Shown here: positions 1-24,651 of the stretch, in pieces
How positions within the stretch are numbered: position 1 is the first letter of the stretch
Layout: each line of letters opens with the position of its first letter
Virus record (IMG/VR): IMGVR_UViG_3300020365_000037
Coordinates: 1-43,060 of that record
DNA length: 43,060 bases
Source of the DNA: a virus
Taxonomy: Duplodnaviria; Caudoviricetes
Direction: 5' to 3' (one strand)
Translations under genes and position numbers: made by a program
Notes under the pieces: generated by a model
What the model was told of the DNA's origin: nothing
Database searches by the model: none
Seen by the model: the letters and a program-made list of their open reading frames with translations, nothing else

Positions 1-2975
1 CTGTTATAGAACTCAACCATCATATCTTTGCTGATGTTCTTTACTTTGACTGTGAAGTGTGTGAGTTCGTGAGCCAGCGCACGTACAGCATCAGGCGAAG
101 ACAAGCCTTGTGATATAGCAATGGCACCTTTCTGAATGCCGCCGCTCTGTTGCTTAACCCAGTTGTTTAGGTAAGCCGCCACAAACATGCCATCATCTGC
201 CACGACATCTTGGTTCTGTAGCCAAGTTGCCATGTCTACCACGTCTACGGTGTCTAGAGCTTTACCCAGAGCTTGCTGGAACATCATCAGCACTTTACGG
301 ACGTTAGAGCGGTCCTGTTCAGGCACAGCCTCAAGCATGGCTTCAACGCCTTCACCAAACGCAGTCGCACCGCCACGCTGTCCAGCATCACGGGAACGAG
401 TAAACTTAGGGTCCTCGTTTCTCTCGCGAAGCATATTTTTCATATATGCAATAGCTTCGTCTTTGGTGTAGCCGATGGGTAACTCAGGGATGCCGGGTGT
501 TTTGGCACTGCCACTTCTGGCTACTTCACCACCGTTTTCATCTACCAAGAACCATGCATAATTAGATGAGCCTACCATCTGCAAACGCATGGTATACATG
601 ATGTTGCCACCATCTGCGACTGAGGTAATAGGTGGCTGAACCTCATCAACCATACCCTCTGGGGTCCGCATACGCCGTGTCTTGATTGTGTATTCAATCT
701 CAGCTTCAGCTTCAGCTTCATCAATTACGCTATCTGGTGAAGCGGCAGTGACTTCATCATCTTTGATAACAGCCGGTGACAAACCTAAACGCTGGCGTAT
801 CAGTTCATTCATGTCTGTCTCAACAGGGTCTCTGCCGGTCTCTGCTTCAGTCTGTGTCTCATCTGGCAGAGGTATTACATCCGGTGGAGCATTCGGGTCA
901 GGACGTGATGTACCCGGTTGTTCAGCCCGTTCATTACCACGCTCTGTCACACCCGGCTGGTCTTCACCAAAACGCGGGTTGTATGGTAATGCCGCTGGTG
1001 TCTGTGTCTCATCAGTAATCTGTGCGGCTGGCTGACCTTCAATCTGCCCTTGCATCTGGCCGCGCATCTCAGCCAACATGGCGTTCCGAGCTTCCATCAA
1101 ACGCTTATAAACAGGAGCAGTCATCAGAAGGTTAGATGGGTTAGGTGAACTAACATCCATCAGAGTACCAGAAGATATGGCTACACTGCGGAAACCTGTC
1201 TTGCTTGAATTATCAAATATCAAAACATGGTTCATCTTTGGGTTGCCCTGCTTGTCTTTTGGACGCAGTGGCCTGTTGTTCTTGTCCATGACTACACGGA
1301 AAGGCTTACCGCCTTTGCTTTGGTAAATCATGTTAGGAAGTTTTGTAGTACGAACTGGGTTCATAATTATTTTAGTCAGTTCAATACGCTCTTGAATATC
1401 TGCTAACTGACGAATAGCTGAAGGTGTATTACGCTTCGCCGCTGTATTATAAGTCTGGTCCCATTGAGCTTTCATAACGTCCGCTTTACGTAACCACTCA
1501 AAGAAAGCAACGGTGTTTCTTATCCTAACGTCACCGGTATACTTCTCATTTGCTTGACGCTTGTTAGCATCGTACTGCTCCATCCTATCAATTTGTGACT
1601 TCAAGAAGGCATCACGGCTAGACACGCTGTCTGGATTGAAACCGGCTGGAATTTGATTGTTAATTATCTGGTCGTTGCGTGTGGTTGCCTCAAACTGTGC
1701 GTCTTCTTCACTGGCAAAGTTCTGGCGGAAGTCTGTGTTTGCATTATCAACAACAGACCAGCTACCATCTTCATTTTGTTCAATGACAAACTGCGGTGCG
1801 GGAAGGGCGGCTACTGGCTCTGGACCAGTCAGAGGTGTCATCACCTCACCATCTATTGGGTCAGGCCCAGTGAGAAGTTTGGTTGCTGGAACGAGTTGTG
1901 TGCCGGGTTCAAAAGCCGGGACATTCTTTCCGTTCATCTGGCTAATTAGAATACCACCAGCCGTAGTGGGTACATCAAAGAATATAGAACCAATGAATGC
2001 GTCTAGTGCGCCCTGTGAAAGAACACGGCTAGGGTCATAACTATTTTGAGCAATAGCGTTAGATGAGATAGTGTCTGCAACTTCTAGAGTAGGCTGAACA
2101 ATCAGGGACTGTTGTGCAAACTGACCGGCTATAGCTTTTGCACCTACGGCAGGGGCGGCGGTTACACCTACGCCTCTTGCAAAGCGCAGAGGTGCTATCA
2201 AAGTCGCAACAGATGCTAGTGCGCCAGACTTTGCGCTATCTACTTTGGCATCTGCGTAAGCTAAGTCGTAGGCTTCTTCAACAGACTTTCCTTGTTGTCT
2301 ATAAGCTATGTATGCGTCTTTAGTAGTGGAACCGAGCGTTTGTAAAGCTACGCCACCACCAGAACCTACTGTTGCACCACCAAGAATACCTAAAGGTGTA
2401 GCAACTACTGTAGGGGCTGTTATGGCACCACCAGCCGCACCGCCAGCAATCATTGTAGAAATAGAAGGTAATGTGCCACCAATCATGTTGGCATACCAGT
2501 CAGCATCTACAAAACGTGATAAGCTGTTTTGGTCAAAGCCCAGTTCTTCAGGGGGAGCAGTTATAGTTCTTTGAAAGTTTTGCTCCAGAGCCATCATGTT
2601 GGTCTCATTATCATTCAAGATAAGAGATGCTCCAAAGCCCATGTCACCATAGCCTTGGTCAGCCGCCGCCATAGTGTCACTTAAAAATTCACTAAACGCA
2701 CTTTGTGTGTCTGGACCAGACATGTCTGTGACTGGGATGTCTGTGTCTAAACCAAACTCTTGAGAAAGTTCAGACAGGTCAAAACCTCTAGCTCTTTGCT
2801 GTTGCTTTTGCTGGAAGCCACCGATGCCCTCTATCAAGCCAGAAATTCTTTCTCTGTCTATCTGAGGTGATTGGTAGTTAGCTAAGTCTTGTCTGGCCTG
2901 TTGTAGTTTGTCTGCACCAATACCACCAAAGCCGGTGGTTGGATTAGCAAAAAGACCCGGTACTTTTGGTGCCAT
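1..2975 (-). CDS. Very large internal virion/ejection (polyvalent-type) protein, 3' end truncated; contains an HExxH zincin-like motif
   Basis: Missing from the ORF track because it has no stop in the window. ATG at 2975 (MAPKVPGLFANPTTG...) follows the stop of the 2978..3706 gene and the frame reads open to base 1. It has a Gly/Ala hydrophobic segment and in-frame ALAHELTHF (HELTH at 57-71). Confidence 0.75.
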   Translation of the reverse strand, partial: MAPKVPGLFANPTTGFGGIGADKLQQARQDLANYQSPQIDRERISGLIEGIGGFQQKQQQRARGFDLSELSQEFGLDTDIPVTDMSGPDTQSAFSEFLSDTMAAADQGYGDMGFGASLILNDNETNMMALEQNFQRTITAPPEELGFDQNSLSRFVDADWYANMIGGTLPSISTMIAGGAAGGAITAPTVVATPLGILGGATVGSGGGVALQTLGSTTKDAYIAYRQQGKSVEEAYDLAYADAKVDSAKSGALASVATLIAPLRFARGVGVTAAPAVGAKAIAGQFAQQSLIVQPTLEVADTISSNAIAQNSYDPSRVLSQGALDAFIGSIFFDVPTTAGGILISQMNGKNVPAFEPGTQLVPATKLLTGPDPIDGEVMTPLTGPEPVAALPAPQFVIEQNEDGSWSVVDNANTDFRQNFASEEDAQFEATTRNDQIINNQIPAGFNPDSVSSRDAFLKSQIDRMEQYDANKRQANEKYTGDVRIRNTVAFFEWLRKADVMKAQWDQTYNTAAKRNTPSAIRQLADIQERIELTKIIMNPVRTTKLPNMIYQSKGGKPFRVVMDKNNRPLRPKDKQGNPKMNHVLIFDNSSKTGFRSVAISSGTLMDVSSPNPSNLLMTAPVYKRLMEARNAMLAEMRGQMQGQIEGQPAAQITDETQTPAALPYNPRFGEDQPGVTERGNERAEQPGTSRPDPNAPPDVIPLPDETQTEAETGRDPVETDMNELIRQRLGLSPAVIKDDEVTAASPDSVIDEAEAEAEIEYTIKTRRMRTPEGMVDEVQPPITSVADGGNIMYTMRLQMVGSSNYAWFLVDENGGEVARSGSAKTPGIPELPIGYTKDEAIAYMKNMLRERNEDPKFTRSRDAGQRGGATAFGEGVEAMLEAVPEQDRSNVRKVLMMFQQALGKALDTVDVVDMATWLQNQDVVADDGMFVAAYLNNWVKQQSGGIQKGAIAISQGLSSPDAVRALAHELTHFTVKVKNISKDMMVEFYN

Positions 2976-2977
2976 TT

Positions 2978-3706
2978 TTATAAGCCTTGTTGAATAAGCC
3001 TGATAATCTGATTAGCAACAGTCGATGAAAGACCGCGACCTGTAAGTGAATTTCTTAAATCATTGATGAGTTGACCTCTTTGACCGGCGGGTGTCTGCAT
3101 AACTTTCTGACGGAAAGAACTTACAAACTGTCCCAACTCCCCACCAAAACTTAAAGTAGCGGTTGGGTCACCATCAAAATAACCTGTTCCAGAAGTGGTT
3201 ATTTGAGGTGAAAGCAGACCCAGTGCATCGTTAATTGCTTTATTGATAGATGCGGGGTCATTGCCTATCTGACCGGACAACACTTGGTTCTTGACCATAT
3301 CTGTAATCTGTCCATAGACACCGCTATACAAAGGGTCTAAGTCATTGCCATCAAACGCATCGTCACCAAATAATGGTGTTCCGTCTGCTCCTGAGTAGTT
3401 CAGAACAGACGTATTAATCATGTCATTGAGTGCAGACATGTTACCCAAGTTCAAAGGGTTCGCCTGACCTTTTGCGTTAGCTCTAATCATGGCTCCGCCA
3501 AGTGTGCCTTCTAAGTTAAGTATGGCTCGGCGGTTTGCTTGGTCCTGATTGAACCTTGCAATGTCATATTTAGATGCAAGTCCAAGATTGAACTGACGTT
3601 GCTCTTCAGCCGCCGCTCTTTGCTTGGCTTCTTTCTGTTTACCAGCGGCATCCAACTGACCAGCTAACAGACCGAGGTTGCCAAGTGTTGTCATAAATCT
3701 AGACAT
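2978..3706 (-). CDS. Putative internal virion (ejection) protein
   Basis: 242 aa, Gln/Gly/Ala-rich helical composition; lies between tail genes and the giant virion protein. Confidence 0.55.
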   Translation of the reverse strand: MSRFMTTLGNLGLLAGQLDAAGKQKEAKQRAAAEEQRQFNLGLASKYDIARFNQDQANRRAILNLEGTLGGAMIRANAKGQANPLNLGNMSALNDMINTSVLNYSGADGTPLFGDDAFDGNDLDPLYSGVYGQITDMVKNQVLSGQIGNDPASINKAINDALGLLSPQITTSGTGYFDGDPTATLSFGGELGQFVSSFRQKVMQTPAGQRGQLINDLRNSLTGRGLSSTVANQIIRLIQQGL

Positions 3707-3707
3707 G

Positions 3708-5186
3708 TTAGGACCCTACGCTTGAGACTGCGCCTTTCGAGGCTAATGAGAATGGATTAGATTGACCCGCCATAAGTTTTGCCTGTGTTCCGGCTGGCCC
3801 CAGACCCAAGTTCATGTTCTTGAACTGGTTGTTCTGGTATTGCTGAAGAGCTTGCATCGCATCCATTGGTAGTTTGGATTGTATCTCAGCAAACTTTGCA
3901 TCTAGTGAGGCGATACCTTCGGTAGCAATTGTACTGTTGGTAAGACCCCTAGCGGCCATAGAACTGACCCAGTTAGCTTTCGCATCCGCGTATTGTTGGT
4001 TCAATTCATTCTGCCGCTGGGTGGTGTACTCAGACATAAAGTTTTGGCCGAAGTCAGAGTTCGGGTCAGTCTGCGCCCGAACACGGGCAACCTCTTCTGC
4101 ATAGAGACGTGCGGCTTGCTCTTGTGGGCTTTCAGCAAATGCCGTAATTAGAGCCGAGCCTACAGAAAGTGCTTGCATTGGGTCATCCATAGCTTTCTGT
4201 GCAATGTTATCCATCACGCCTTGGAAGCTAAAGCCACTGCCTTCAGTGTTTTGTTTTACCCAATCAGCGGCTGATTGCATCAAACCATTCTCACCAACCA
4301 CGACTTGCTGACCATTAACCATGAAGGATGGAACACTCTTACCGCCAGCGGTCACCATCATTTGATTACTATTTGCGGCCATTTGATTACCAGCACCGCT
4401 AAATACGGAGCCGCCCGGTGTAGACATATTCGCGCCACCGCCTGTGCCTACTGCCGATTGGTTTGCCGACAATATCTGAGCATTGCTCATGTTCGGAGTT
4501 GACTGGTTAGGTACAACATTAGGGGGATTGAATTGTCCAGAACCACTACTACCTGAAGGCACACTACCGCCGGTGTTTACTGCGCCGCTGACATTTGCAA
4601 ACTGCGTGGCGTTAGTATTTGTATTCTGCACACCAAAATCCGGCTGGAACCCACCACCAAACTTTCGTGGGCTTTCATCTAGATACTTCTGCAAATCCGC
4701 ATCACTCATACCGGCCTGACGCATTGCATCTAAATCACCAGCTATATTTAAGTTGTTTTGGCTTTCGTAAGCATAGTTTGGAATGCTTGAGCGGTTAGAA
4801 AAATTATATGCTTGTGCTTGGTCTGTGAAAGACTGAGGTCCACCACCAGTTATGGATGTGTCTGCAATACTAGGCCGTGGTGCGGGTCCGGTAATAGACG
4901 ATTGCTTACCACCCCCAAAAATACTTTTGTAGGTATCTTGGAAGGTGCCAACTTTACCCATACCTTGTGCTAGGCCATAACCACCAAGACCAGCTTGTAA
5001 TGCGCCCGAAACGCCACCGGCTGACAAGCCAGAAGCGACATTCAAACCGCCTAGACCTGTTGTCAGTGCGTTACCGTACTTCATGCCATCGAAAGCACCC
5101 ATACCAGCAAGACCGCTACCTATAGCTAGGCCAGCCCTTACTTCGTCCTTTCCAAGGAAGTTTCTAATTTTCTTAAAGATGCTCAT
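3708..5186 (-). CDS. Putative internal virion/DNA ejection protein
   Basis: 492 aa; N-terminal MSIFKKIRNFLGK plus Gly-rich amphipathic segment, Q-rich coiled C-terminus; synteny with podovirus ejection proteins. Confidence 0.6.
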   Translation of the reverse strand: MSIFKKIRNFLGKDEVRAGLAIGSGLAGMGAFDGMKYGNALTTGLGGLNVASGLSAGGVSGALQAGLGGYGLAQGMGKVGTFQDTYKSIFGGGKQSSITGPAPRPSIADTSITGGGPQSFTDQAQAYNFSNRSSIPNYAYESQNNLNIAGDLDAMRQAGMSDADLQKYLDESPRKFGGGFQPDFGVQNTNTNATQFANVSGAVNTGGSVPSGSSGSGQFNPPNVVPNQSTPNMSNAQILSANQSAVGTGGGANMSTPGGSVFSGAGNQMAANSNQMMVTAGGKSVPSFMVNGQQVVVGENGLMQSAADWVKQNTEGSGFSFQGVMDNIAQKAMDDPMQALSVGSALITAFAESPQEQAARLYAEEVARVRAQTDPNSDFGQNFMSEYTTQRQNELNQQYADAKANWVSSMAARGLTNSTIATEGIASLDAKFAEIQSKLPMDAMQALQQYQNNQFKNMNLGLGPAGTQAKLMAGQSNPFSLASKGAVSSVGS

Positions 5187-5188
5187 AG

Positions 5189-6913
5189 CTATCTACCTCT
5201 ATTCTGCTGAATTCTTCCAGACCTACCGCGACCTTTACCTCCACCTAAACCTGATACATTCAACTCATCAGACATAGCGAGAAACGGGAAATCATTTGTA
5301 GTTACGCCGTACACATCTGACCCCGGCAAACGCTTGCGGCGTAGCAAGCCTGTTGCGGCGGTGTCTGGTATCAAACGCCTATTATTAATTGGCTGAGATA
5401 TGTTTTGTGGTGCGGTCACGCCGCCTGTATTACCATCACCGCCTGTGTCTTCCGTAAACACTGAACGGTTCCGCGCTCTACTATCAGAAAGCTGTGGCAA
5501 GAACCGGTTTAAATCTACTCCAACATAATCTAGACCGCTAATACCAAGACCGATAGGCACACCCAACACTTCACCAACTGTGCCAAAGATACTCGCAGTG
5601 TCTTTGTCTAACTGGGCATTTCTTAAATTATTGGCTGTGCCACCAAAACCCAGTGCTGTGGAAAATGCGCCAGCCGGTGCAAAGAAACTAAACGCTTTAC
5701 CTAAATCACTTCCAAGGAAACCTTTACTACCGCCCTCTACCATAAAGGAACCGGTTTGTGGGTTGTAATCTACAATCTGTTGATTGCGAACTACGGCCTG
5801 ACCGCCTAATTTCTGGTCGGCTCTACCTATTTTAATATCAGGATTAGCAGAAAATATTTGAGACAGATTAACCATCTGCGCTCTAGGGTTCATGTTTTCT
5901 AGACCCGGTACGCCATATTGTTCGCCTAACTCTTTCATACCGGCTTTGTCTAGTAAACCAAACGCACCACTCTCGCTTGCCATCAAACCGCTATTGGTAG
6001 TGTCGAATGCTCTTTCCTTAGAAGGGTTTGATTCACCACTGCCCTGATAAAACTTTCCGGGTCTGTTACCAATGCTGGTGCCGGGTATCAAAGCCGGTTG
6101 AATACCGGTTACGTTGGTCGCATAATCACCGCGTCTGTCCAGACGTTCCTGAAGGTCTTGCTGACGCTGACTTCGCTCAAGGCTCTGTGAAGGTATCTCA
6201 CCAAACTCTACATCGCCGTTTACGCCGCTTTCAAACGCCTCGTTTGCAAAACCCTCGGCTTGTGCGCCAGCGGCACCGGACACGCCGCCTGTTAGAGTGC
6301 CTGATGTATTATCAAAAGACCGCTTGGCTATAGAAGGTGATGTGTACCCAGCCTGACCAATGACTTGTTGGGTCACGCCTTGAATAACAGAGCCAACACT
6401 ACTGCCTTGATTGGCGGTGCCGCCTTGTGCGGTAGCAAACGGGTCTGTGCCTGTGTTTAGGAATGTCGCAATCTGTCCTACAGATGCGCCTTGGTCAGCC
6501 ATACTCCGTGCATAATCTACTTCTGATGTTGTAGCGTTCTGTAATGCGTCATAGTTATTACCGGGTTGACCTGAACCAGAACCTGATGTCCAACCGATTG
6601 CCGCGTCTGCCGCTGTAGAACCTGTTTTGGAAACACCATCTACGCCAAAGGTAGTACCGCCAGACGAACCGCTATTGTCATCATTCCCGCTGTCACTAGA
6701 GCCGCCGGAACTAAAGTTATTGTTGCTACCGGTGCTAAACTCACCACTATCTCCAACACCATAGGGGTCATCAACACTAGAGCTACTACCACCACCGCCG
6801 CCGCCGTCACTACTAAAACAAAATATCTTGGATTGAATAGGGTCCAGCACATCAACACAGTCTGTCAATGTGATACCATCTCTATAAGGATTTATCTTTT
6901 GTAACATGCTCAA
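5189..6913 (-). CDS. Putative internal virion/ejection protein with leader and Gly/Ser-rich N-terminus
   Basis: 574 aa (start may be 6907); IFCFSSDGGGGGGSSSS motif after about 30 aa; overlaps the acyltransferase gene. Confidence 0.55.
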   Translation of the reverse strand: MSMLQKINPYRDGITLTDCVDVLDPIQSKIFCFSSDGGGGGGSSSSVDDPYGVGDSGEFSTGSNNNFSSGGSSDSGNDDNSGSSGGTTFGVDGVSKTGSTAADAAIGWTSGSGSGQPGNNYDALQNATTSEVDYARSMADQGASVGQIATFLNTGTDPFATAQGGTANQGSSVGSVIQGVTQQVIGQAGYTSPSIAKRSFDNTSGTLTGGVSGAAGAQAEGFANEAFESGVNGDVEFGEIPSQSLERSQRQQDLQERLDRRGDYATNVTGIQPALIPGTSIGNRPGKFYQGSGESNPSKERAFDTTNSGLMASESGAFGLLDKAGMKELGEQYGVPGLENMNPRAQMVNLSQIFSANPDIKIGRADQKLGGQAVVRNQQIVDYNPQTGSFMVEGGSKGFLGSDLGKAFSFFAPAGAFSTALGFGGTANNLRNAQLDKDTASIFGTVGEVLGVPIGLGISGLDYVGVDLNRFLPQLSDSRARNRSVFTEDTGGDGNTGGVTAPQNISQPINNRRLIPDTAATGLLRRKRLPGSDVYGVTTNDFPFLAMSDELNVSGLGGGKGRGRSGRIQQNRGR

Positions 6914-7352
6914 ACGCCATACCTAACTTACGTATAGAACCATCTGGATATCTTCGGACCCAGTAAGCCCTATCTGTATTGAAGCTGGGAGCAATCGGTG
7001 TAAGATACTCTCGTACCCATCTACCAAGTGTTCCAACATCTCCGTATGGCGCAATTAAATCCATTATGTATATCCGCTCTCCGCTCTTCCAGTCCGCTGG
7101 CTGTAGTTTGCGTGTACGGTTTAAAAATGAATTTTCAGCCTCGTAAGACAAAAAAGCCCAACTTATAAACCCAATGACCTTGCCGTCCCTGTAGAACAGT
7201 CGTGCTAGGTCCATCTCCATCGGCACAATAAACAGACGTTGTATGTCTTTTATGTACCAGTTTCTGTGCAATTCAGAGCGGAGACAAAGCTCTGTAATGT
7301 CACCTAATACTACATCATTTTTTATCTCTAGGCTAGACATAGACATAGACAT
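6882..7352 (-). CDS. hlyC: Toxin-activating lysine acyltransferase (HlyC/RtxC/CyaC family)
   Basis: Family motifs RSELHRNW (catalytic Ser/His), GFISWAFLS, LQPADWKSGERIYIMDLIAPYG (catalytic Asp). Confidence 0.88.
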   Translation of the reverse strand: MSMSMSSLEIKNDVVLGDITELCLRSELHRNWYIKDIQRLFIVPMEMDLARLFYRDGKVIGFISWAFLSYEAENSFLNRTRKLQPADWKSGERIYIMDLIAPYGDVGTLGRWVREYLTPIAPSFNTDRAYWVRRYPDGSIRKLGMAFEHVTKDKSL

Positions 7353-7354
7353 AA

Positions 7355-8929
7355 TTATTTAATGTCAACCACTAATGCAAAGTCTAGAATTCTTAAATCA
7401 CCAACCACACTGTAACCGCTTGAACTGGATGTTGTGCTAAACCTCAAGGAGATAGCTTTGGCTCTGTGTGGAATCGGAATATCAATTGGTCTGGTCTGGT
7501 CACCACTAATACCGGCGGTTGACGCGAAGCTATCTGCTTCAGGACGGACTGTTGTAGACTGTAAGTTATTATTGTCTTGGTCAAAGACTGTGACTGTAAA
7601 GTCGGCAGTGCCTACTGCTCTAATAATAAGACGCTTAAACATCTTGTACTGGTCTGGTGTATTCAAACTTAACAGCGGTGTACGGATACTCATATCAGAA
7701 CTGCTCGGCTTAGAAGCTCTGGTTAAATCTTGGCCATCACCTGTACCGTTGCCCCATGTGCCAACTTGTAGAGCAGAAATCTGTGCGCTTGTATCTGGCC
7801 TCGCAAAAAATGAAGCACATGAAATGTTTGTGCCGGGTGAGAAAGAGAAAGACCTAAAACCGCCGCGACCAACGCCGGGTTCATAAGTAAATGTCAAACG
7901 GTCAAATGTTTCAGATGGTGTGGGACCACCGATGTCACGCGGAAAGAAAACATGGTATTGCCCCAGTTCACCATCCCAAACAGCATGGGGTTCTTGTCTT
8001 TCACCTGTGGTTGGGCAAGCCTGTACGGCTTCCTGAAACTTATCCTGTATCTCTCTAGATAACATAATTGTTTCAAGTGTAAGTCCTGAAGCCGCACGTC
8101 TCAGACTGTGGACACCAAAACGACTACAAAAGAATACATCTGTGCCTACGTTTACTGCCGTGTTTCTGCCGAAGATACCGATTGGCACTCTGAAGTCTCT
8201 GGCGATTTGCCACTGGTTGATGTTGGTATCCGCAAGATAGACCAGAGTTTCGTTCTGACCGAAGACAACCAGTTTGTCTCCTTCAAGAACCGCCAAACCT
8301 TTAATGACATCATTACTGGAAAACTGGTTCTTAACGTCCAGTATGAGGCCGTCTGTGGCGGCAGGAGTTGTACCGCCCGATGTATTAGTACGCCAATCAT
8401 CAAAACTATCCTGTACACTAATGTGGATTTCCGTGGGTTTATTGGGTATCCCTGCGACAGCCAGTCTGTTTAATATGTTGACGGCATGACCCCCGTCTGG
8501 GTAACGACCAAGAGAACTTGCGTTGGTTGTGGTAGCACTTTGCCAAGCAGTCCCGTCCCAATACCTTGGAACGTGTCCTTCCATAAAAGAAAACTGTTTC
8601 TGGTCAAAGTTAACAATACTTATTGGAGTAATAGCCGCTGTAGTAGCGAGAAACATGTTGCTAAAAATAACATTGTTAGGGGCGCGGCCATCAATATTTG
8701 TGCCGTCATATTCATATTTAAGTACAACATCAGAGCCATAATGAGCGATATTGTATATCTCACCACTGCCCTGACCAGTATTATCAACGCCGGGTCCTCT
8801 TATAATCTGGCCACGAAAATCTACATATGCGCCATCCAGTTCAACAAAGAACCTCTCAGACATATTTGTAGGACTGGTTACTGTGTCCAGACCAATAAAA
8901 CGATTATAAGGAAATAAACGCCTAGCCAT
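7355..8929 (-). CDS. Tail tubular/nozzle protein (T7 gp12 / P22 gp10-like)
   Basis: 524 aa, beta-rich; begins like podovirus tube proteins (FIGLDTVTSPTNM); follows the adaptor gene. Confidence 0.65.
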   Translation of the reverse strand: MARRLFPYNRFIGLDTVTSPTNMSERFFVELDGAYVDFRGQIIRGPGVDNTGQGSGEIYNIAHYGSDVVLKYEYDGTNIDGRAPNNVIFSNMFLATTAAITPISIVNFDQKQFSFMEGHVPRYWDGTAWQSATTTNASSLGRYPDGGHAVNILNRLAVAGIPNKPTEIHISVQDSFDDWRTNTSGGTTPAATDGLILDVKNQFSSNDVIKGLAVLEGDKLVVFGQNETLVYLADTNINQWQIARDFRVPIGIFGRNTAVNVGTDVFFCSRFGVHSLRRAASGLTLETIMLSREIQDKFQEAVQACPTTGERQEPHAVWDGELGQYHVFFPRDIGGPTPSETFDRLTFTYEPGVGRGGFRSFSFSPGTNISCASFFARPDTSAQISALQVGTWGNGTGDGQDLTRASKPSSSDMSIRTPLLSLNTPDQYKMFKRLIIRAVGTADFTVTVFDQDNNNLQSTTVRPEADSFASTAGISGDQTRPIDIPIPHRAKAISLRFSTTSSSSGYSVVGDLRILDFALVVDIK

Positions 8930-9600
8930 TAGGTATACTCGTTAATCTCAACCTCTAGATTTCCTTGAATATTAATCACGGAACCTAACCAGTTGTTTAA
9001 TGTGTTCAGATAAATAGAGTTCTTTAACTGTATTAAACCGGTGTTATTAGTATCAATGTCATCTACGGCGTAATATGCTTTCAAACCCTCAATAAGAACT
9101 TCATCATCAATGGGTCTGGTGTTGGTAATTGCTTGATATCGTTTCAGCCTCACCTTGTATGGGTGTGATACAACCGCGTTTGAGACCGTTGTATCTGCTT
9201 CATCAGCCATCAGATAAGTCCCACTCACGGTGGAACCCCCTGAAGTTTTTGGTTTGACAACAAAAGAATACAAGTCTGAACCACTATGACCGGCACCCGC
9301 TACCTTAACCGGTGTGTATGTACCAAATGTAACGGTGCCAGAAGCTATAGTGAGTTCATTAGAACCGGCTGTCATAGAACCTGTTTGGTCATCATATGAA
9401 TTGTCTAGCAAGTCTAGAAAGGTTGGATGTCTATTGATGTCTGCAACAATACGATTTGCGTAGTTCAGAAACTTTTTTTCTTCCAATGCCCTCAAGACGG
9501 CGGGGCTGGCCTCACCATTTTCTTTGAGCATGTCATCAACTAACTCAGAGAGTGTTGAGAATTGACCTGTGCCGGAACCAGAGGGATTGAAACTTGACAT
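8929..9600 (-). CDS. Putative head-tail adaptor / tail tubular protein A
   Basis: 223 aa; helical N-terminus (TLSELVDDML...LNYANRIVADI); position downstream of capsid. Confidence 0.55.
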   Translation of the reverse strand: MSSFNPSGSGTGQFSTLSELVDDMLKENGEASPAVLRALEEKKFLNYANRIVADINRHPTFLDLLDNSYDDQTGSMTAGSNELTIASGTVTFGTYTPVKVAGAGHSGSDLYSFVVKPKTSGGSTVSGTYLMADEADTTVSNAVVSHPYKVRLKRYQAITNTRPIDDEVLIEGLKAYYAVDDIDTNNTGLIQLKNSIYLNTLNNWLGSVINIQGNLEVEINEYT

Positions 9601-9601
9601 G

Positions 9602-10027
9602 TTAACCTACCACTACTTCTTGGATGCGTCCCTGTCTGAAAAATACATGCTTGCGAAGATAGTCTGCGGCATCAGGTTCTACGGCGGCTTTGCCTTGCTC
9701 AAACCTAATCTTATGGGGACCGGCATCTACATCTATGCTGGAACGTCCGTTAAACTGAAAAAATATCAAATCTTTATTTGATTTCTTGGCTTCCTGAAGC
9801 TCAACCAGCTTTGGGTCATCTTTCATAGAAACCATTTTCCCATCAACTGTGACCGCATCCTTTTCCATGAAGATGTGGTTTTTGCGATATAAATGATGTC
9901 GCTCAACTTGTTCAGCCAGTTTTGGGTCCACTGCGAGTACGCCGCCTTCAAACTTATATACTTTGCCGTCTATACTTATCTCCATATTTGGACGCTTCGC
10001 ATAAAACTTTACTTTCTTCGCTGGCAT
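9602..10027 (-). CDS. Hypothetical virion-module protein with an internal duplication
   Basis: 141 aa; two similar halves (YKFEGGVLAVDPKLAEQVERH / IRFEQGKAAVEPDAADYLRKH); GGAG RBS. Confidence 0.6.
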   Translation of the reverse strand: MPAKKVKFYAKRPNMEISIDGKVYKFEGGVLAVDPKLAEQVERHHLYRKNHIFMEKDAVTVDGKMVSMKDDPKLVELQEAKKSNKDLIFFQFNGRSSIDVDAGPHKIRFEQGKAAVEPDAADYLRKHVFFRQGRIQEVVVG

Positions 10028-17861: not shown

Positions 17862-17890
17862 TTGATAATGTCTATGTCTTGCCCCATATT
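17862..17890 (+). promoter_or_regulatory. Putative early promoter
   Basis: TTGATA-17 nt-CATATT after an AT-rich tract; spacer contains ATGTCTATGTCT. Confidence 0.45.
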
Positions 17891-18064
17891 AGGGGGGACA
17901 GGAATTTTTTGGAGATTTTCGGCTCACATGGCCTAGCCACCCAACCCGCTCAGACCCCAGCACCATTAGGACGAGCTTTGATAGCAACAAATAAAATGGC
18001 ACTAGACCATGCTTACGCTGACGGGGATTACTGAGACAACCAGACTGGGTTATGTCTGGCCAAA

Positions 18065-18117
18065 GCTGATAGTGGGATGTGTATCCCGCCTGATGATTGC
18101 GAAAGCATGAAATCAGC
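18065..18117 (+). ncRNA. Hammerhead ribozyme, type III (HHR1)
   Basis: Stem III GCUGAU/AUCAGC; cleavage triplet AUA (after 18071); stem I GUGGGAU/AUCCCGC; core CUGAUGA; stem II U-UGC-GAAA-GCA-U; core GAAA. Confidence 0.85.
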
Positions 18118-18152
18118 AACAGACACAGACAGCATGGAACGGGAGTTACAAC

Positions 18153-19643
18153 ATGCATAATTTCAAACTTACAGCGCAACAGCGCACTGCACTGCTCACA
18201 GATATGCGGGCAAAAATGAAACAACAGCCCCACATTCTGGGCGAGAGTTTCAAACTACACTTGGCCAGCAAGGCTGAGATTATTGAGGCGGCTCAAAAGC
18301 TGGGCTTAGATGCGGCCAGTTATGGTACGCCAGCGGGTGCGACTGCACCGGCTATGCCAAAACCTAAACCAGCTATTCAAGCCCAGCCAATCGCAAAGGC
18401 TGAAGCTGTTTCAGAAATGGGTGACTGGGCTAAGTCTTCTGGTCTGGAAGAACAGGCAGATGGTATTCTGCAACAGCCTTATGCTGACCTTCGGGGCAGT
18501 ATTATGGAGATGCTGTCAGAAAAGACAGACCTTCAAGCTAAACTGGCCAGCCGTCCAGCGGATAACGTGGTGGCCATGCCTGTTGCATCTGCGCCAGCTA
18601 TTGAAGTGCCGGACGTCAATGAACATGTCCAGCATGTTGAAGAGACCGGCACAGTGAAGGCTGGCAAAATCTTTCGCGGTCTGAATGTAGACTGGGATAT
18701 CCCTGTCTATAATGATACCCGCGCACCGGCTGTTGACCCAAATTATGTGCCGGACCCAAAACTGGCTCATGCTTTTCTTTCGGTTGCCAGACGTGCGGTA
18801 CCTTTGCCTATGCTGTTCTTTGGGCCAGCCGGTACTGGTAAATCCTCTCTGCCCCGTTACTTTGCTGGACAGACAGGGCGGTCATTCTGGAACATCACTG
18901 TGTCTGATGACACAACAGTTGATGATTTCTTTGGCGGGTTCCAAGTGAGGGGCGGCACCACATACTGGTCTGATGGCCTACTGCTTAAAGCAGTCAGACA
19001 GCCCCGCGCTGTTATCCTCATTGATGAGGTAAGCAGGGCGCGGCCTGATGTACTGGTGGCCCTCAATGGTATCCTACAGGACCGCGAATATATCGTACCT
19101 CAGACTGGTGAAAGTATCGCAGTTGCTGAAGGCGTCCAGATTATGCTGGCAGACAACACCAACGGGCGGGGTGATGCATCTGGCCTGTATGCCGGTGCAA
19201 AGCAGATGGATAGCAGTTTGCTGTCTCGCTGTGCAATCAAACTGCACTTTGGCTACCCTTCAAAATCTCAGGAAAGTCGGGTATTGCGTCAGCGGTCAAA
19301 TGCACCAAAGGCGTTCTGTGACAGTCTGGTAGACTTTATGTCTATCTGCCGTAAAGCGCATGACAGGGGTGAGGCCCCAACCCTGACAGTTTCACTGAGG
19401 GAAAGTACCAACATTGCCCTGATGGTAATGGATGGCATGGACCCATCAGAGGTTGTGCATTGGGTGATTGGTAATGCGCTGGAAGCGGTAGACCAAGAAA
19501 CACTGACCCAGTTGTTCAACACCAATGTCAATCCTGATGAATGGCTGGCCCTGTCTAAGGGCGAGACATGGACCCCACCGGCTGATGAGGGTGATGCTGA
19601 AAAGCAGACTGACGGTGATGAGGATGAAATGCCTTTCAACTAA
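18153..19643 (+). CDS. MoxR/CbbQ/CobS-like AAA+ ATPase
   Basis: Walker A GPAGTGKS, Walker B ILIDEVSR, sensor ADNTNGRGD, MDSSLLSR, VSLRE. Confidence 0.9.
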   Translation: MHNFKLTAQQRTALLTDMRAKMKQQPHILGESFKLHLASKAEIIEAAQKLGLDAASYGTPAGATAPAMPKPKPAIQAQPIAKAEAVSEMGDWAKSSGLEEQADGILQQPYADLRGSIMEMLSEKTDLQAKLASRPADNVVAMPVASAPAIEVPDVNEHVQHVEETGTVKAGKIFRGLNVDWDIPVYNDTRAPAVDPNYVPDPKLAHAFLSVARRAVPLPMLFFGPAGTGKSSLPRYFAGQTGRSFWNITVSDDTTVDDFFGGFQVRGGTTYWSDGLLLKAVRQPRAVILIDEVSRARPDVLVALNGILQDREYIVPQTGESIAVAEGVQIMLADNTNGRGDASGLYAGAKQMDSSLLSRCAIKLHFGYPSKSQESRVLRQRSNAPKAFCDSLVDFMSICRKAHDRGEAPTLTVSLRESTNIALMVMDGMDPSEVVHWVIGNALEAVDQETLTQLFNTNVNPDEWLALSKGETWTPPADEGDAEKQTDGDEDEMPFN

Positions 19644-19649
19644 AAATCT

Positions 19650-19677
19650 GGCGGGGGCGGTTTTTACTGCCCCTGCC
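19650..19677 (+). other. GC-rich hairpin between AAA+ stop and HHR2
   Basis: GGCGGGGGCGGT/ACTGCCCCTGCC stem with no downstream U tract. Confidence 0.6.
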
Positions 19678-19680
19678 CAA

Positions 19681-19735
19681 CTCTGATAGTCGGATGTGTA
19701 TCCGGCCTGATGATTGGGAGACCATGAAATCAGAG
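19681..19735 (+). ncRNA. Hammerhead ribozyme, type III (HHR2)
   Basis: Stem III CUCUGAU/AUCAGAG; cleavage after AUA (19688); stem I GUCGGAU/AUCCGGC; CUGAUGA; stem II U-UGG-GAGA-CCA-U; GAAA. Compensatory changes relative to HHR1. Confidence 0.87.
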
Positions 19736-19763
19736 ACACAGACACAGACAGGAGCAACTCGAT

Positions 19764-21755
19764 ATGTCTTATATCATTGCACAAGATTTAACCCACGCAG
19801 TAGACACTGCAATCCAGACAAGCCTGAGACACTTGCCCGACTTTGGTAAGGTTGAATGTCAGGTTACATGGCATGGTGGTGCAACGGCAGGGACCCACTG
19901 GTCTCTCAGTGATGAAGAGGGCGGCAAATACCTACGCAGTCGTATCAATATGCCTACTCTGCCAGCTACAGCATCTGTTACCAGATATGAGGCTGACACT
20001 ATGACAGGCTTCGCCATCCATGAGATGGGCCATAATATCTGCACAGATTTAAATGTCTGGAAACAGGCATGCCGTAAAGGCAAAGAATATGCCCAGATAC
20101 TAAATGCTTTTGAAGACCCGCGCATGGAACTGGACTTGGTGTCACGGGGCCGTTTCGCTGGTGCCAGAAAATATTTAGAATTACTGACAGAATACTGCGT
20201 GAGTTATTCTAAACAAAATGGCTGGCACCCTGCCAACCCACGGTCTTTGTCATTCAGCATCAACACACTGGCTTATGTAGAGATGTGCGGCTATGAAGTG
20301 CCATCTGCGGATGGCCTGTTGGATGAGGCTGGCCCATTGGCCCCTCACATTCGCATGTGGGCCGACAAGTTGAAGCTGTGCAAAACAACAGCGGATGCAT
20401 GGGCTTTGACACAAGAATTTGTGGACTACTACCCACAGCAACAGGAAGAGCCAGACGGTCAGCCAGATGTTGGTGAAGGTCAGGAAGGTGATCAGAATGA
20501 TGACCGGTCAGACACAGACAATCAGCCCATGTCTTCTGATGTTACTGAAACACCGGATGCTGACAGTGCAGAGGCTGATGCAGAGGCTGATGCAGATGCA
20601 GATGCTGATGCTGATGCAGAGGGTGATGCACAAGGTGCAACAGACACTGATGAGGCTGATGATGCTGAACAGCAGACGCCTGATGCCCAGTCACCTGTCA
20701 AAGGTTTCAGTCCTGATGCCGGTGATGGCAGTGTCATAGATGACATTAACCCTCTGGACCAGATGGATGCAGAACGTGATGTGCGGCCTATGGCTGACAA
20801 TATTACAGACCGCAATCCAGATGCCGCTGGTTTACAAGTGGTAGACACAGCGCGAAACTCTCAACTGTCTCTGGAAGGTGGTTCCATCAGGTCCGGTAAG
20901 ACACGGGCCAAGCAGATACGGGCAGACTTACCCCGCTCAGTAGGTGCGGCCAAGCAACGTATCACACGGCTGTTAACCAACCCAGACAGACGGGGCGAGT
21001 TGCGGAACCGTGACAAGGGACGTTTGGACAGGGGCCGTTTACACCGCCTGTCTAGCAATTCCAATAATGTCTTTAACAAGACATGGAAGCGGTCAGGTTA
21101 TCGGACAGCCGTTGGTATCATGGTGGACAATTCATCATCCATGCGCGGCTCAGACAACCATGATGCAGTCAAGCTGGCTTTTGTGTTGGGTGATGCTATG
21201 TCAGCGGCTAACATTAAGTTCTCTGTCTCATCATTCCCTATGGTTCAAGTTTCAGCCGCTCGTAACACTGACTTTAAAACTGAATATACACAAGGTCATG
21301 ATACGAATGGTATAGGCTGGAACCTAGCTGAAATGGGTATGGACCCCATATATCAGACTGGTTGCCGCATTAGACCGGACGCCAATGACAGCACAACACT
21401 CAAGCCGTTCAACGTGCCTTGGTCTAAGTCCGACTACAATGTGACTACCCTCTGGGGTAACACAGGTGGTGGTACACCTATGACTGAGGGTCTCATGACT
21501 ATGGCATCACAGATGCGCGACTTGGATGAAGATAAGAAAGTTATATTCATCCTGACAGACGGTGGTGCCGGTGGTCCAGACCTTGAGCAGATGGTCAAGC
21601 TGGCTAACCAGTGGGGCATCAAAGTTGTCGGACTTGAGGTGGCACATTACGGGTCACGTAAAGAGTTTGCCGACTGCTTGAACGCAAACATCTGGGGCCG
21701 CACTGTCCATGAAATTCTGATGGACTTGGACAAGCTGGCTGATGAACTTGCCTAA
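19764..21755 (+). CDS. CobT-like vWA-domain protein (N-terminal HExxH domain, acidic linker, C-terminal vWA)
   Basis: AIHEMGH and LNAFEDPRME; D/A/E-rich linker; MIDAS VDNSSSM, GGTP, ILTDG. Confidence 0.88.
   Translation: MSYIIAQDLTHAVDTAIQTSLRHLPDFGKVECQVTWHGGATAGTHWSLSDEEGGKYLRSRINMPTLPATASVTRYEADTMTGFAIHEMGHNICTDLNVWKQACRKGKEYAQILNAFEDPRMELDLVSRGRFAGARKYLELLTEYCVSYSKQNGWHPANPRSLSFSINTLAYVEMCGYEVPSADGLLDEAGPLAPHIRMWADKLKLCKTTADAWALTQEFVDYYPQQQEEPDGQPDVGEGQEGDQNDDRSDTDNQPMSSDVTETPDADSAEADAEADADADADADAEGDAQGATDTDEADDAEQQTPDAQSPVKGFSPDAGDGSVIDDINPLDQMDAERDVRPMADNITDRNPDAAGLQVVDTARNSQLSLEGGSIRSGKTRAKQIRADLPRSVGAAKQRITRLLTNPDRRGELRNRDKGRLDRGRLHRLSSNSNNVFNKTWKRSGYRTAVGIMVDNSSSMRGSDNHDAVKLAFVLGDAMSAANIKFSVSSFPMVQVSAARNTDFKTEYTQGHDTNGIGWNLAEMGMDPIYQTGCRIRPDANDSTTLKPFNVPWSKSDYNVTTLWGNTGGGTPMTEGLMTMASQMRDLDEDKKVIFILTDGGAGGPDLEQMVKLANQWGIKVVGLEVAHYGSRKEFADCLNANIWGRTVHEILMDLDKLADELA
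20573..20630 (+). repeat. Coding low-complexity repeat (GCTGAT/GCAGAT) encoding poly-AD/AE linker
   Basis: ADAEADADADADADAE tract within the vWA protein. Confidence 0.7.
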
Positions 21756-21764
21756 ACTTAACAC

Positions 21765-21790
21765 GGGGTCACCGCTTCGGTGGTGGCCCC
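21765..21790 (+). other. UUCG hairpin between vWA stop and HHR3
   Basis: GGGGTCACCGC-TTCG-GTGGTGGCCCC with no U tract. Confidence 0.7.
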
Positions 21791-21846
21791 TGCCACCTGA
21801 TGAGGCCCGATGGTCTGGGCCGAAACGCATAGCGTAGTGGTAGACC
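21791..21846 (+). ncRNA. Hammerhead ribozyme, type I with pseudoknot (HHR3)
   Basis: Stem I UGCCAC/GUGGUA; CUGAUGA; stem II GGCCC/GGGCC; GAAA; stem III CGC-AUA-GCG; cleavage after GUA (21836); loop II GGUC can pair with GACC at 21843-21846. Confidence 0.92.
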
Positions 21847-21878
21847 CACAGACACAGACACAGACGAGAGGTAATACA

Positions 21879-22073
21879 ATGTCTAAATTTACAGCAAAAG
21901 TAGAAGTTTATGGAACTGTTTGGAGGAGCGTCACTGTTTCTGGAAACAGTCAAGCCGAACTGGAAGCAAATGCCCAGAGTGAATGGGCGCGAGTAGTAGG
22001 GGGCCAAGTTGGCAACGCCCAAGCCACACACATGCAAATTCTGGAGAAGGAAAACTCAAATGCCAAAATTTAA
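21879..22073 (+). CDS. Small early protein
   Basis: GAGG RBS then MSKFTAKVEVYG...; this start is preferred over 21810, which lies inside the ribozyme. Confidence 0.7.
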   Translation: MSKFTAKVEVYGTVWRSVTVSGNSQAELEANAQSEWARVVGGQVGNAQATHMQILEKENSNAKI

Positions 22074-22248
22074 GGTAACCGCCACGATGGACGTGGGATA
22101 TGAACTAATCCTTGAAGCACCCAATGCGGATACAGCTTGGCAGATGGCAAAGCAAAATGACACTGATTGGGTCAAAGCAGATGATGGTCACGAATGGACT
22201 ATGGAAGATGTACATCCTGTCAATGAAGTGGAGATGACTAATGACTAA
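22060..22248 (+). CDS. Small early protein (possibly DpnD/PcfM-like)
   Basis: AAGGA RBS; MPKFKVTATMDVGYELILEAPNADTAWQMA. Confidence 0.65.
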   Translation: MPKFKVTATMDVGYELILEAPNADTAWQMAKQNDTDWVKADDGHEWTMEDVHPVNEVEMTND

Positions 22249-22462
22249 CGTAAATAAACCGGCTGAACTGTACACCGTATCAGGTGTCACACTTTATGAA
22301 CATCCGCTGTATGGCAGTGATGTTCCCGTACTGGTTAAGGTTGGCCTTAACTACTATGACACTTCGTTCTATGACCCGGACCAAGGTGATATGGAATATG
22401 TCATAGACATGATTAATGAAATCAAAATAGGAGCGGGGAGTCATGAGCCAGTCAAATTCTAA
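22241..22462 (+). CDS. Hypothetical protein
   Basis: 73 aa, GGAG RBS, overlaps neighbours. Confidence 0.6.
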   Translation: MTNVNKPAELYTVSGVTLYEHPLYGSDVPVLVKVGLNYYDTSFYDPDQGDMEYVIDMINEIKIGAGSHEPVKF

Positions 22463-23027
22463 TCCGGTTGTGGGATACAACTTTAAACTTCCCTATCGGG
22501 CTAAGACGGACGGGCGGTCACGTAAGTTTCCAAAAGGAACTAAGGTGGTTGTCCTCTGGAAAGGCACGACAGACTATGGTGACACTGTGCGTGTGGTTGA
22601 TGAAGCTGAATTCCTCAAGTGTATTGAGGACCAATACAGGCCCATACCGCGCTCTGTTTTTCTACACCCAGACAGAATAAAAGAGGTCTTGGGATGGGGA
22701 CAAAACACCTTACAAAACGCAGACTGGTATGAGGAAAATCTCATAAAGATGGGTCTGTTAAAGGATGGGACAGATAGTAACAATGCTGTTTTGTTTTATG
22801 GCAAAATCAAAAATGAAACAGACAAGGCACTACTCATCGACTTAGCAGACTTAATTGAACCTGAGTGGTTTGCTAAATCTACCATCGTTCAACGTGGTAA
22901 GCTGACAGACCGTGACCAGCATGGTTTTGAAGCCCCGCTCTGGCTTCTGAAAAAGAAGGTGGGCGAGGTCAAGGCCAAGATGTTTGAGGACTGTCGCAGT
23001 GCGATAGAGAGGAGGCTAGTCACATGA
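22443..23027 (+). CDS. Hypothetical protein
   Basis: 194 aa; contains ETDKALLI...EWFAKS, a motif common in small phage proteins. Confidence 0.65.
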   Translation: MSQSNSNPVVGYNFKLPYRAKTDGRSRKFPKGTKVVVLWKGTTDYGDTVRVVDEAEFLKCIEDQYRPIPRSVFLHPDRIKEVLGWGQNTLQNADWYEENLIKMGLLKDGTDSNNAVLFYGKIKNETDKALLIDLADLIEPEWFAKSTIVQRGKLTDRDQHGFEAPLWLLKKKVGEVKAKMFEDCRSAIERRLVT

Positions 23028-23446
23028 CAGTAGCCCCTTCAGTACCGGAAGCATTGCTTCGCAAAAGGTTTGCAAAGAAGCGCAAGCCGATGGGGTGGGT
23101 AGACCACTTCCCAATTGAAGACCCTAGACAGACACAGAACACTCTGTCACCGGCTCAGTTGCGGATAAGTCTACTTGCCCTAGACATGGAACCGGTGGAG
23201 TTACGTGCATTGTTTGGCGTAACCAATCAGACCATGAAGAACTGGTCTTCGGGCAGAACACCACTGCCCAAAGGCATCGCTGATTATCTCAGGCTCAAAG
23301 TTGCACAGCGTATCCGCGCCCTGTCTATCGGGACGGGTACGCCTGTGTCTCTGGAAGAAGATTTGCCAGACAAGGTTCCAAGTATGAAAGCCTTGGCGGC
23401 AATTGATGAGATATTAAAAACACTTCGTGCATATCTCAGTGCATAG
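23024..23446 (+). CDS. XRE-like helix-turn-helix protein
   Basis: LSPAQLR...ELRALFGVTNQTMKNWSSGRTPLP. Confidence 0.7.
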   Translation: MTVAPSVPEALLRKRFAKKRKPMGWVDHFPIEDPRQTQNTLSPAQLRISLLALDMEPVELRALFGVTNQTMKNWSSGRTPLPKGIADYLRLKVAQRIRALSIGTGTPVSLEEDLPDKVPSMKALAAIDEILKTLRAYLSA

Positions 23447-23450
23447 ACAT

Positions 23451-23484
23451 AGGGCGGTATCCTTCGGGGTGCCGCCCTTTTTTT
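23451..23484 (+). terminator. Intrinsic terminator ending the early operon
   Basis: AGGGCGGTATCC-TTCG-GGGTGCCGCCCT followed by a T run. Confidence 0.9.
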
Positions 23485-23488
23485 GTGC

Positions 23489-24228: not shown

Positions 24229-24264
24229 ACTACACAGTCTGTCACTCTGTACTGCGGAATATAC

Positions 24265-24559
24265 ATGATGACGATGATGACAATAAAACCGCACAAAATT
24301 ACCTGTCATACTTTTTTCTCTTGTTTGTTCTGTATTTGTTCTTATAATAAGACACTAACGCATTAAATCATAAATATATCGTCATCATCGTCATCATCTA
24401 CCATTTCATCTGGTAAACACTAGACATTACAGGCGGTTATGTGATGACAATAGACACCGGCTTATTGTCATCTTATCGTCATCAACCGTCATCAAAACAG
24501 ACTGTGTACACCGGATATGATGACAAATGATGACGATGGATGACGGTTGATGACGATAA
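24265..24559. repeat. GATGAC iteron cluster with inverted repeats; putative replication origin
   Basis: Perfect 17-bp IR (24265-24281 / 24381-24397) around an AT-rich spacer; perfect 21-bp IR (24473-24493 / 24539-24559); many GATGAC/GTCATC copies; non-coding. Confidence 0.7.
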
Positions 24560-24651
24560 AAAACGGATTAATTTATTTCAAAGGGGTTGCGTTCTAGTAT
24601 AACACCATTAAAATGACGATAGAATAATAGTGACAGAAGGGACAAAGACAG

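Follow-up and report, generated by a model that had tools for sequence, protein, structure and literature searches.

Hammerhead ribozymes at three junctions of a marine phage operon suggest a self-processing polycistronic mRNA

Introduction

Hammerhead ribozymes that cluster in prophages were proposed in 2011 to cut long transcripts into operon-length or single-gene mRNAs (Perreault 2011, PMC3088659), and the concept of ribozyme-based processing is therefore not new here. The systems described there include a triple array at ardA in A. tumefaciens, arrangements in A. caulinodans and C. scindens, and HHphage of the haloviruses HF1/HF2; three tandem arrangements are reported to cleave in vitro, and one to do so in E. 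coli (PMC3088659). [quoted passage not shown] Here we examine IMG/VR virus record IMGVR_UViG_3300020365_000037 (Duplodnaviria; Caudoviricetes), whose 43,060 nucleotides (nt) we refer to as the window, and within it an operon that encodes a MoxR-like AAA+ ATPase, a vWA partner protein and a block of five small genes, with a hammerhead motif before each of these three units. The best reading of this arrangement, strongly supported by comparative data, is that the polycistronic mRNA of the operon would process itself.

Three hammerheads at the unit boundaries

We searched the window with a descriptor that requires a hammerhead core together with three stems and an NUH triplet, whichever of the three permutations they take. 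It matched exactly three times, always on the plus strand, with no match on the minus strand and none in any of 200 dinucleotide shuffles. These are the three complete sense-strand hammerheads that an earlier note, made from the sequence letters, had placed at the same positions. HH1 (18065..18117) is a type III hammerhead with loops UGUGUA and GAAA and an AUA triplet, predicted to be cut after 18071. HH2 (19681..19735) belongs to the same type III family and has the same triplet; its predicted cut, after 19688, lies 75 nt before the AUG. HH3 (21791..21846) is a type I hammerhead with a GUA triplet, a predicted cut after 21836 and a loop II GGUC able to pair with a 3' GACC in a pseudoknot. Descriptor, fold and covariation identify the first two, and descriptor, fold, alignment and pseudoknot the third; the cleavage positions that the descriptor assigns agree with the cuts that the earlier note had predicted.

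All three sites have the core CUGANGA and GAAA, an A15.1-U16.1 pair and the NUH triplet, and each motif folded in isolation forms the three-way junction (3/3). Across our alignments A2 and A3 the core is invariant except at N7, a core that for most type III rows was set by the search pattern. The closing position 10.1-11.1 is G-C in HH3, U.U in HH1 and HH2 instead of the usual G-C, and G.U in the relatives L003 and L005. U10.1-U11.1 is a described natural hammerhead variant and the best-tolerated mismatch (PMC3088659).

The earlier note had also proposed a check with the Rfam hammerhead models, and this came back empty: nothing reached the gathering level of RF00008, RF00163 or RF02276 in the window or in 16 related loci, the best score being a partial RF00008 match at HH3 (20.1 bits, threshold 48.5). 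On score, we assign the motifs to no Rfam family. A blastn search with HH1 against cultured phages returned only partial matches of the chance kind. Judged by their sequences, the three motifs are almost certainly real and functional hammerhead ribozymes.

Conservation within the clade and absence from outgroups

Our clade sample comprises 27 loci from viral and metagenome contigs whose AAA+ or vWA relatives are 37-100% identical; because several are near-duplicates, three of them nearly identical to the window, the number of independent lineages is below 27. All 24 loci that leave 100 nt or more after the AAA+ stop codon carry a hammerhead at the AAA+/vWA junction, 12 times as type III and 12 times as type I. 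Upstream of the AAA+ gene, one lies within 700 nt in all 20 loci that offer 150 nt or more, immediately before the gene in 17 and one small open reading frame (ORF) further up in 3. A broad scan, which gave no match in 2.06 Mb of shuffles, found a hammerhead after the vWA gene in 14 of 15 loci, and the first scan found the fifteenth (L102). In some relatives, additional type III copies precede small ORFs and a type II copy follows further downstream.

That the ribozyme is kept at the AAA+/vWA junction through a change of type points to selection at this junction. Four loci (L012, L097, L098 and L106) have the core UUGANAA, in which U3-A8 compensates for the C3-G8 tertiary pair, indicating selection on the catalytic core and not on the stems alone. 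These copies are of type I and lie at the junction after vWA (approximate positions L012:11690, L097:9630, L098:9680 and L106:3020); the U3-A8 core is a natural active variant (PMC3088659).

The outgroup comprises 16 loci in which the AAA+ protein is at most 35% identical, including phage CRP-810 and Microcystis phage Mae-Yong1326-1. The broad scan found no hammerhead in any of the 16, and the gap between the AAA and vWA genes is -1 to 27 nt in the 12 outgroup loci where it can be measured, versus 118-157 nt in the clade. The descriptor gave no matches in the relatives from the genome collection, all of which are distant. The earlier note had suggested looking at the same junctions in related phages and had named core loss in close relatives as evidence against its proposal. 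The ribozyme is retained in 24/24 AAA+/vWA loci of the clade and found in 0/16 outgroup loci, and the cores are kept, with the compensatory U3-A8 in four loci.

Taken together, the clade amounts to a natural experiment. A junction that is tight and ribozyme-free in the outgroups, a cultured phage included, is inside the clade a hairpin-hammerhead-ribosome-binding site (RBS) cassette, with a ribozyme of type III or type I and in some cases a compensatory core. This pairing of a ribozyme-free outgroup with a cassette-bearing clade makes the processing idea directly testable with reporters.

Individual relatives show further features. Type I variants at L011:7648-7710 and L012:9509-9575 show a C.A mismatch at 10.1-11.1 and, following A9, an additional U. 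One relative has a small WYL_2-like ORF between the hammerhead and the AAA+ gene (L207:2241-2474(-), L105:5752-5985). At L103:5575-7004, a stop codon interrupts the AAA+ gene of this contig after 110 codons, possibly through an error in the assembly.

A compact type III family and a pseudoknotted type I

Covariation among type III copies was assessed on 66 of 70 distinct sequences, the rows being preselected by the descriptor and four copies with a shorter stem III omitted. In this alignment 98.5% of cells are paired, a value as high as this appearing in none of 500 shuffles, and in stems I and II each of the nine pairs is 100% paired, with changes on both sides. The UG of loop I and two adenines of loop II are invariant in these copies, consistent with a loop-loop contact. 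A pattern scan identified 113 viral loci. The pattern does not require pairing in stems I and II, yet of 61 distinct matches 59 form both. A looser pattern gave 133 loci in a quarter of the collection (an estimated ~490 stored viral stretches overall), from which 80 distinct sequences fold as type III; the distance from cut to start codon is 56-85 nt in 61 of the 66 family members in which it is measurable. When the search puts no constraint on stem III, CUGAU/AUCAG occurs in only 15 of the 80 and most have CUGU/ACAG, and we rejected as a family trait the idea that stem III copies the core CUGAU to let the product refold and block religation.

Many type III copies lie in phages of 58-63 kb with no tblastn match to 20 window proteins. 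These phages carry three to six hammerheads around an ATPase/DUF3150/DUF2201-vWA module (L438, L439, L440 and L441), with six junction ribozymes in one operon of G001 (L438 = G001:C1:33000-52000), and share a layout in which the operon is divergent from large minus-strand genes. The module, whose ATPase is of the MoxR type, is BLAST-unrelated to the AAA+/vWA pair of the window. A compact type III family overlooked by Rfam is now defined, and it recurs at this second module. Descriptor matches inside an L438 ORF (11855) and at L079, L213:1049 and L253:3297 look spurious and were excluded from the counts.

The type I pseudoknot varies in matched pairs (GGUC/GACC, UCAGC/GCUGA, UUAGC/GCUAA). It measures at least 4 bp in 12 of 18 cases, 3 bp in 4 and 2 bp in 2.

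Junction hairpins, leaders and the AGACA motif

The earlier note had described one order at every junction, namely a hairpin without a U tract, the ribozyme, AGACAC repeats, an RBS and ATG. These elements are present in the sequence, but the hairpin before HH1 (18040..18059, plus strand, 6 bp, no U tract) is weak, with a z of -1.3 (L001 has the same sequence), and the AGACA motif is not specific to the junctions. The other two, on the same strand and also without U tracts, are a 12-bp GC hairpin including G.U pairs (19650..19677), which would end the AAA+ mRNA, and an 11-bp GC hairpin with a UUCG loop (21765..21790) before HH3. A terminator scan of the window listed none of the three. Across the clade, an upstream hairpin with z <= -2 accompanies 38 of 44 ribozymes. 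The first leader continues past HH1 with ACAGAC repeats, a GGGAG RBS and the ATG (18118..18155), 81 nt separating the HH1 cut from the AUG. In L003 and L006, the leader and HH1 are separated by an insertion of 90 nt that contains two additional hairpins.

Genome-wide, AGACA is seen 319 times against 88 expected, and CAGACA 128 times against 21. AGACA/CAGAC favors the coding strand and concentrates in 5' leaders as well as in the intergenic region between terS and the AAA+ gene, and AGACA clusters also occur in the ribozyme-free leaders of primase, helicase and nucleotidyltransferase genes. The motif could be a protein-binding or primase site. Its genome-wide spread, its presence in other leaders and its lack of enrichment in the second phage lineage led us to reject the AGACAC repeats as a part of the ribozyme cassette. 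AGACA/CAGAC is over-represented also in L002, L012, L096, L011 and L109, and CAGAC in CRP-810 (L303, L304).

Genome and operon setting

The window is a single virus record in which terminal repeats were not found, and it is probably incomplete, since the AAA+ cluster is also present on contigs up to 57 kb. Its minus strand encodes terminase, portal and capsid, and its gene content includes PolA, ribonucleotide reductase, an SF2 helicase, a primase and an integrase; among 50 ORFs scanned there was no RNA polymerase, T7-type included. The ribozyme operon is oriented divergently from the terS/terL/portal operon.

The first gene (18153..19643, plus strand, as is the rest of the operon) encodes the 496-amino-acid (aa) MoxR/CobS-like AAA+ ATPase (phrog_249; PF07728, E 2e-23), which scores 38 bits against the cobaltochelatase CobS model TIGR01650 (cut-off 558.55). 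The second (19764..21755) encodes a 663-aa CobT-like protein (phrog_1576, 459 and 5298; VWA and CobT_C matches weak and below cut-off) with an N-terminal HExxH at residue 86, an acidic linker and a C-terminal vWA-like domain; it scores 18.3 bits against the cobaltochelatase CobT model TIGR01651 (cut-off 759.05). We name the pair only as CobS/CobT-like MoxR AAA+/vWA. The third unit (21879..23446) consists of five overlapping small genes (64, 62, 73, 194 and 140 aa), mostly without assigned function, the last of which is weakly repressor-like. A strong intrinsic terminator with a U7 tract, found by the terminator scan at 23451..23486, closes the operon. Upstream lies a sigma-70-like promoter candidate, TTGATA-17-CATATT (17862..17890), weak at 9 of 12 consensus matches, both hexamers of which are invariant in six of six aligned sequences. 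It is from its position that we take the operon to be expressed early. Folding of the leader that cleavage would release gave no sign of a structured RNA (z -0.68).

GATC is nearly absent from the window (2 versus 273 expected) and GANTC is strongly depleted; together with the depletion of GANTC in CRP-810 also, this makes an alphaproteobacterial host likely. The distant clade members L012, L096 and L011 retain GATC, and this contrast suggests that restriction or methylation pressure differs between hosts. Direct and inverted repeats rich in GATGAC at 24260-24560, between the resolvase and a helix-turn-helix gene, are possibly a replication origin or an operator array.

Transcript processing and its alternatives

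We consider it probable, from the sequences compared here, that the three hammerheads cleave the operon transcript into a short leader plus three mRNAs, each separately protected. A transcript of ~5.6 kb would start at a host-type promoter near 17890 and finish at the terminator (23451-23486), and cleavage during transcription would yield a leader of ~175 nt, an AAA+ mRNA of 1617 nt, a vWA mRNA of 2148 nt and a five-gene mRNA of ~1650 nt. Hammerhead-type cleavage leaves 5'-hydroxyl (5'-OH) and cyclic-phosphate ends (PMC6765202). Every downstream product would start with a 5'-OH, which after the HH1 and HH2 cuts would adjoin the fully paired stem I hairpin, and every upstream product would end in a cyclic phosphate right behind a GC hairpin. 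Ends protected in this way would shield the pieces from 3' exonucleases and from RNase E, which senses 5'-monophosphate (5'-P); RNase E of cyanobacteria is less efficient at cutting RNA with a 5'-OH than RNA with a 5'-P (PMC10939160). Each unit would receive a fixed leader, and translation of the AAA+ gene would be uncoupled from that of the vWA gene. From the observed anatomy, conservation, covariation and type swapping of the operon, we infer cleavage in the phage, the transcript limits, early timing and a stabilizing or uncoupling purpose. The earlier note's self-processing polycistronic mRNA stands, with its comparative support, as the best reading, but in amended form: HH1 precedes the first gene and so makes a 5' end or trims the leader, separating no cistrons, and the third unit is five genes.

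Several observations weigh against this reading. The U10.1-U11.1 mismatch lowers activity relative to a pair (PMC3088659), and with flanks included ViennaRNA, which computes without tertiary contacts, favors inactive alternative folds at all three sites, the core CUGAU pairing with AUCAG in those of HH1 and HH2. The promoter match is at chance level (11 such sites found, 11.6 expected). Outside the clade, only 68 of 112 ribozymes have the upstream hairpin. Some genes lack a ribozyme: the stretch after vWA in L005 contains a hairpin plus a new ORF but no hammerhead, and the AAA+ gene shares its unit in L011, L093 and L105. A 5'-OH product can be rapidly degraded, as in glmS (PMC6765202). Computed RBS accessibility before and after cleavage is 0.57/0.58, 0.45/0.43 and 0.69/0.69 at the three sites; activation of translation by unmasking is thus not supported, and we rejected the proposal that cleavage unmasks the RBS. 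One marine metatranscriptome holds half of the sequence words, in contigs with a depth of only ~1-9 that cannot show ends. Those contigs also cover the terminase region; there was no joint in that run, in which contigs are uninformative on strand or circles.

Cleavage might instead serve to shorten the life of the message, with 5'-OH products entering RNase J-type decay as for glmS and early expression becoming transient or graded, an outcome that we regard as doubtful. RNase J is present in Alphaproteobacteria, and the 3' product of HH3 has only weak 5' structure, both of which count in its favor, as does the lowered expression that follows glmS cleavage (PMC6765202). A ligand-binding domain is not evident here, though, and the strong hairpins conserved at the new 3' ends (38/44) and the paired 5' ends after type III cuts look protective.

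Improbable, too, is a scheme in which the hairpin, ribozyme and RBS are mainly a leader module that recombines readily and moves along with small accessory genes, cleavage insulating each new gene from its neighbors; we give the same low standing to its corollary that the AAA+/vWA link is a by-product of location in a variable early region. Extra copies before small variable ORFs (L100, L103, L105, L107 and L011) fit such a module, as does a type III family that precedes many unrelated genes in phages without detectable window-protein similarity, but the retention of a ribozyme at the AAA+/vWA junction through a change of type (24/24) does not. The module overlaps with cleavage of the transcript into protected mRNAs and does not exclude it.

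Because HH1 and HH2 are type III ribozymes of the same family in direct repeat, the AAA+ piece could religate, and cleavage would then serve to make circles. The 1617-nt piece would then circularize via a re-formed hammerhead (or RtcB) and be translated as a retrozyme-like circular phage mRNA, which seems to us very unlikely. Its joined ends pass the type III descriptor (7/3/5 bp), and ligation by full-length hammerheads is far more rapid than by minimal forms (PMC6155905); the vWA fragment, by contrast, fails the descriptor when its ends are joined, and 12 of 24 relatives have a type I ribozyme at the second site, so that the ends could not re-form a type III hammerhead. Perreault 2011 sought circles and spliced products and reports none (PMC3088659). 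Retrozymes are moreover non-coding circles of 600-1000 nt, and the phage AAA+ piece, coding and 1617 nt long, falls outside that description.

That the motifs are inactive relics or chance look-alikes, with the hairpins as terminators and a promoter for each gene, is extremely improbable, since the missing Rfam gathering match and the U runs a few bases past the hairpin in some AT-rich relatives stand against an invariant core, U3-A8 covariation, full stem covariation, zero shuffle matches, and window hairpins that lack U tracts and are absent from the terminator scan list.

Comparison with known systems

The early polycistronic transcript of T7 is cut by RNase III near gene boundaries, leaving structured 3' ends. 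The earlier note had proposed an equivalent processing here, and the analogy holds insofar as a transcript would be cut near gene boundaries, but it is loose, as the window has an integrase and no RNA polymerase was found among the 50 ORFs scanned; we do not regard the phage as T7-like. Processing by RNase III is protein-dependent and leaves 5'-P and 3'-OH ends, whereas the phage ribozymes would act protein-free, with 5'-OH and cyclic-phosphate ends.

Among cultured phages, Roseobacter phage CRP-810 (OR671924; PMC11288001) is nearest to the window in its capsid (46%) and portal (36%). It shares with the window a cobS/cobT-like pair divergent from the terminase, and an integrase. Unlike the window, it has no hammerhead, and an E-value Rfam search of its positions 1-10000 found no ribozyme; its cobS-cobT gap is 12 nt, its AAA+ and vWA proteins are only 23% identical to those of the window, and PolA, ribonucleotide reductase and the SF2 helicase of the window set the two further apart. 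In CRP-810, a repeated CA-rich stretch and a GUCCC-GAA-GGGAC hairpin, with no Rfam match, precede gp04 and cobS (L303:810-930, 1740-1790), occupying the places where the clade has hammerheads.

With the sTRSV-like type III hammerheads of RF00008 (PMC6155905), the phage copies share an open stem III, hairpin stems I and II, and conserved core and loop bases. They differ in having U.U at 10.1-11.1 and a 3-bp stem II, and they fall below the model's threshold. Unlike the circular RNA replicons that carry type III, they are DNA-encoded in gene leaders.

The closest parallel in arrangement is with the systems of Perreault 2011, in which several sense-strand hammerheads of mixed types likewise lie on either side of individual genes or short gene blocks of a phage operon, with pseudoknotted type I copies, U10.1-U11.1 and U3-A8 variants, and the same proposed role. 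The genes here are instead a MoxR-like AAA+ gene and its vWA partner in a marine phage clade, and the series is clade-wide, with a type swap at one junction and absence in outgroups. Our literature searches listed no paper linking hammerheads to MoxR/vWA genes, a link that Roth 2014 and Weinberg 2015 may already name in their gene lists and that we do not claim as new. What this locus adds to the described systems is an Rfam-invisible type III family, fixed junctions that show a type swap and a compensated core, and an outgroup free of ribozymes.

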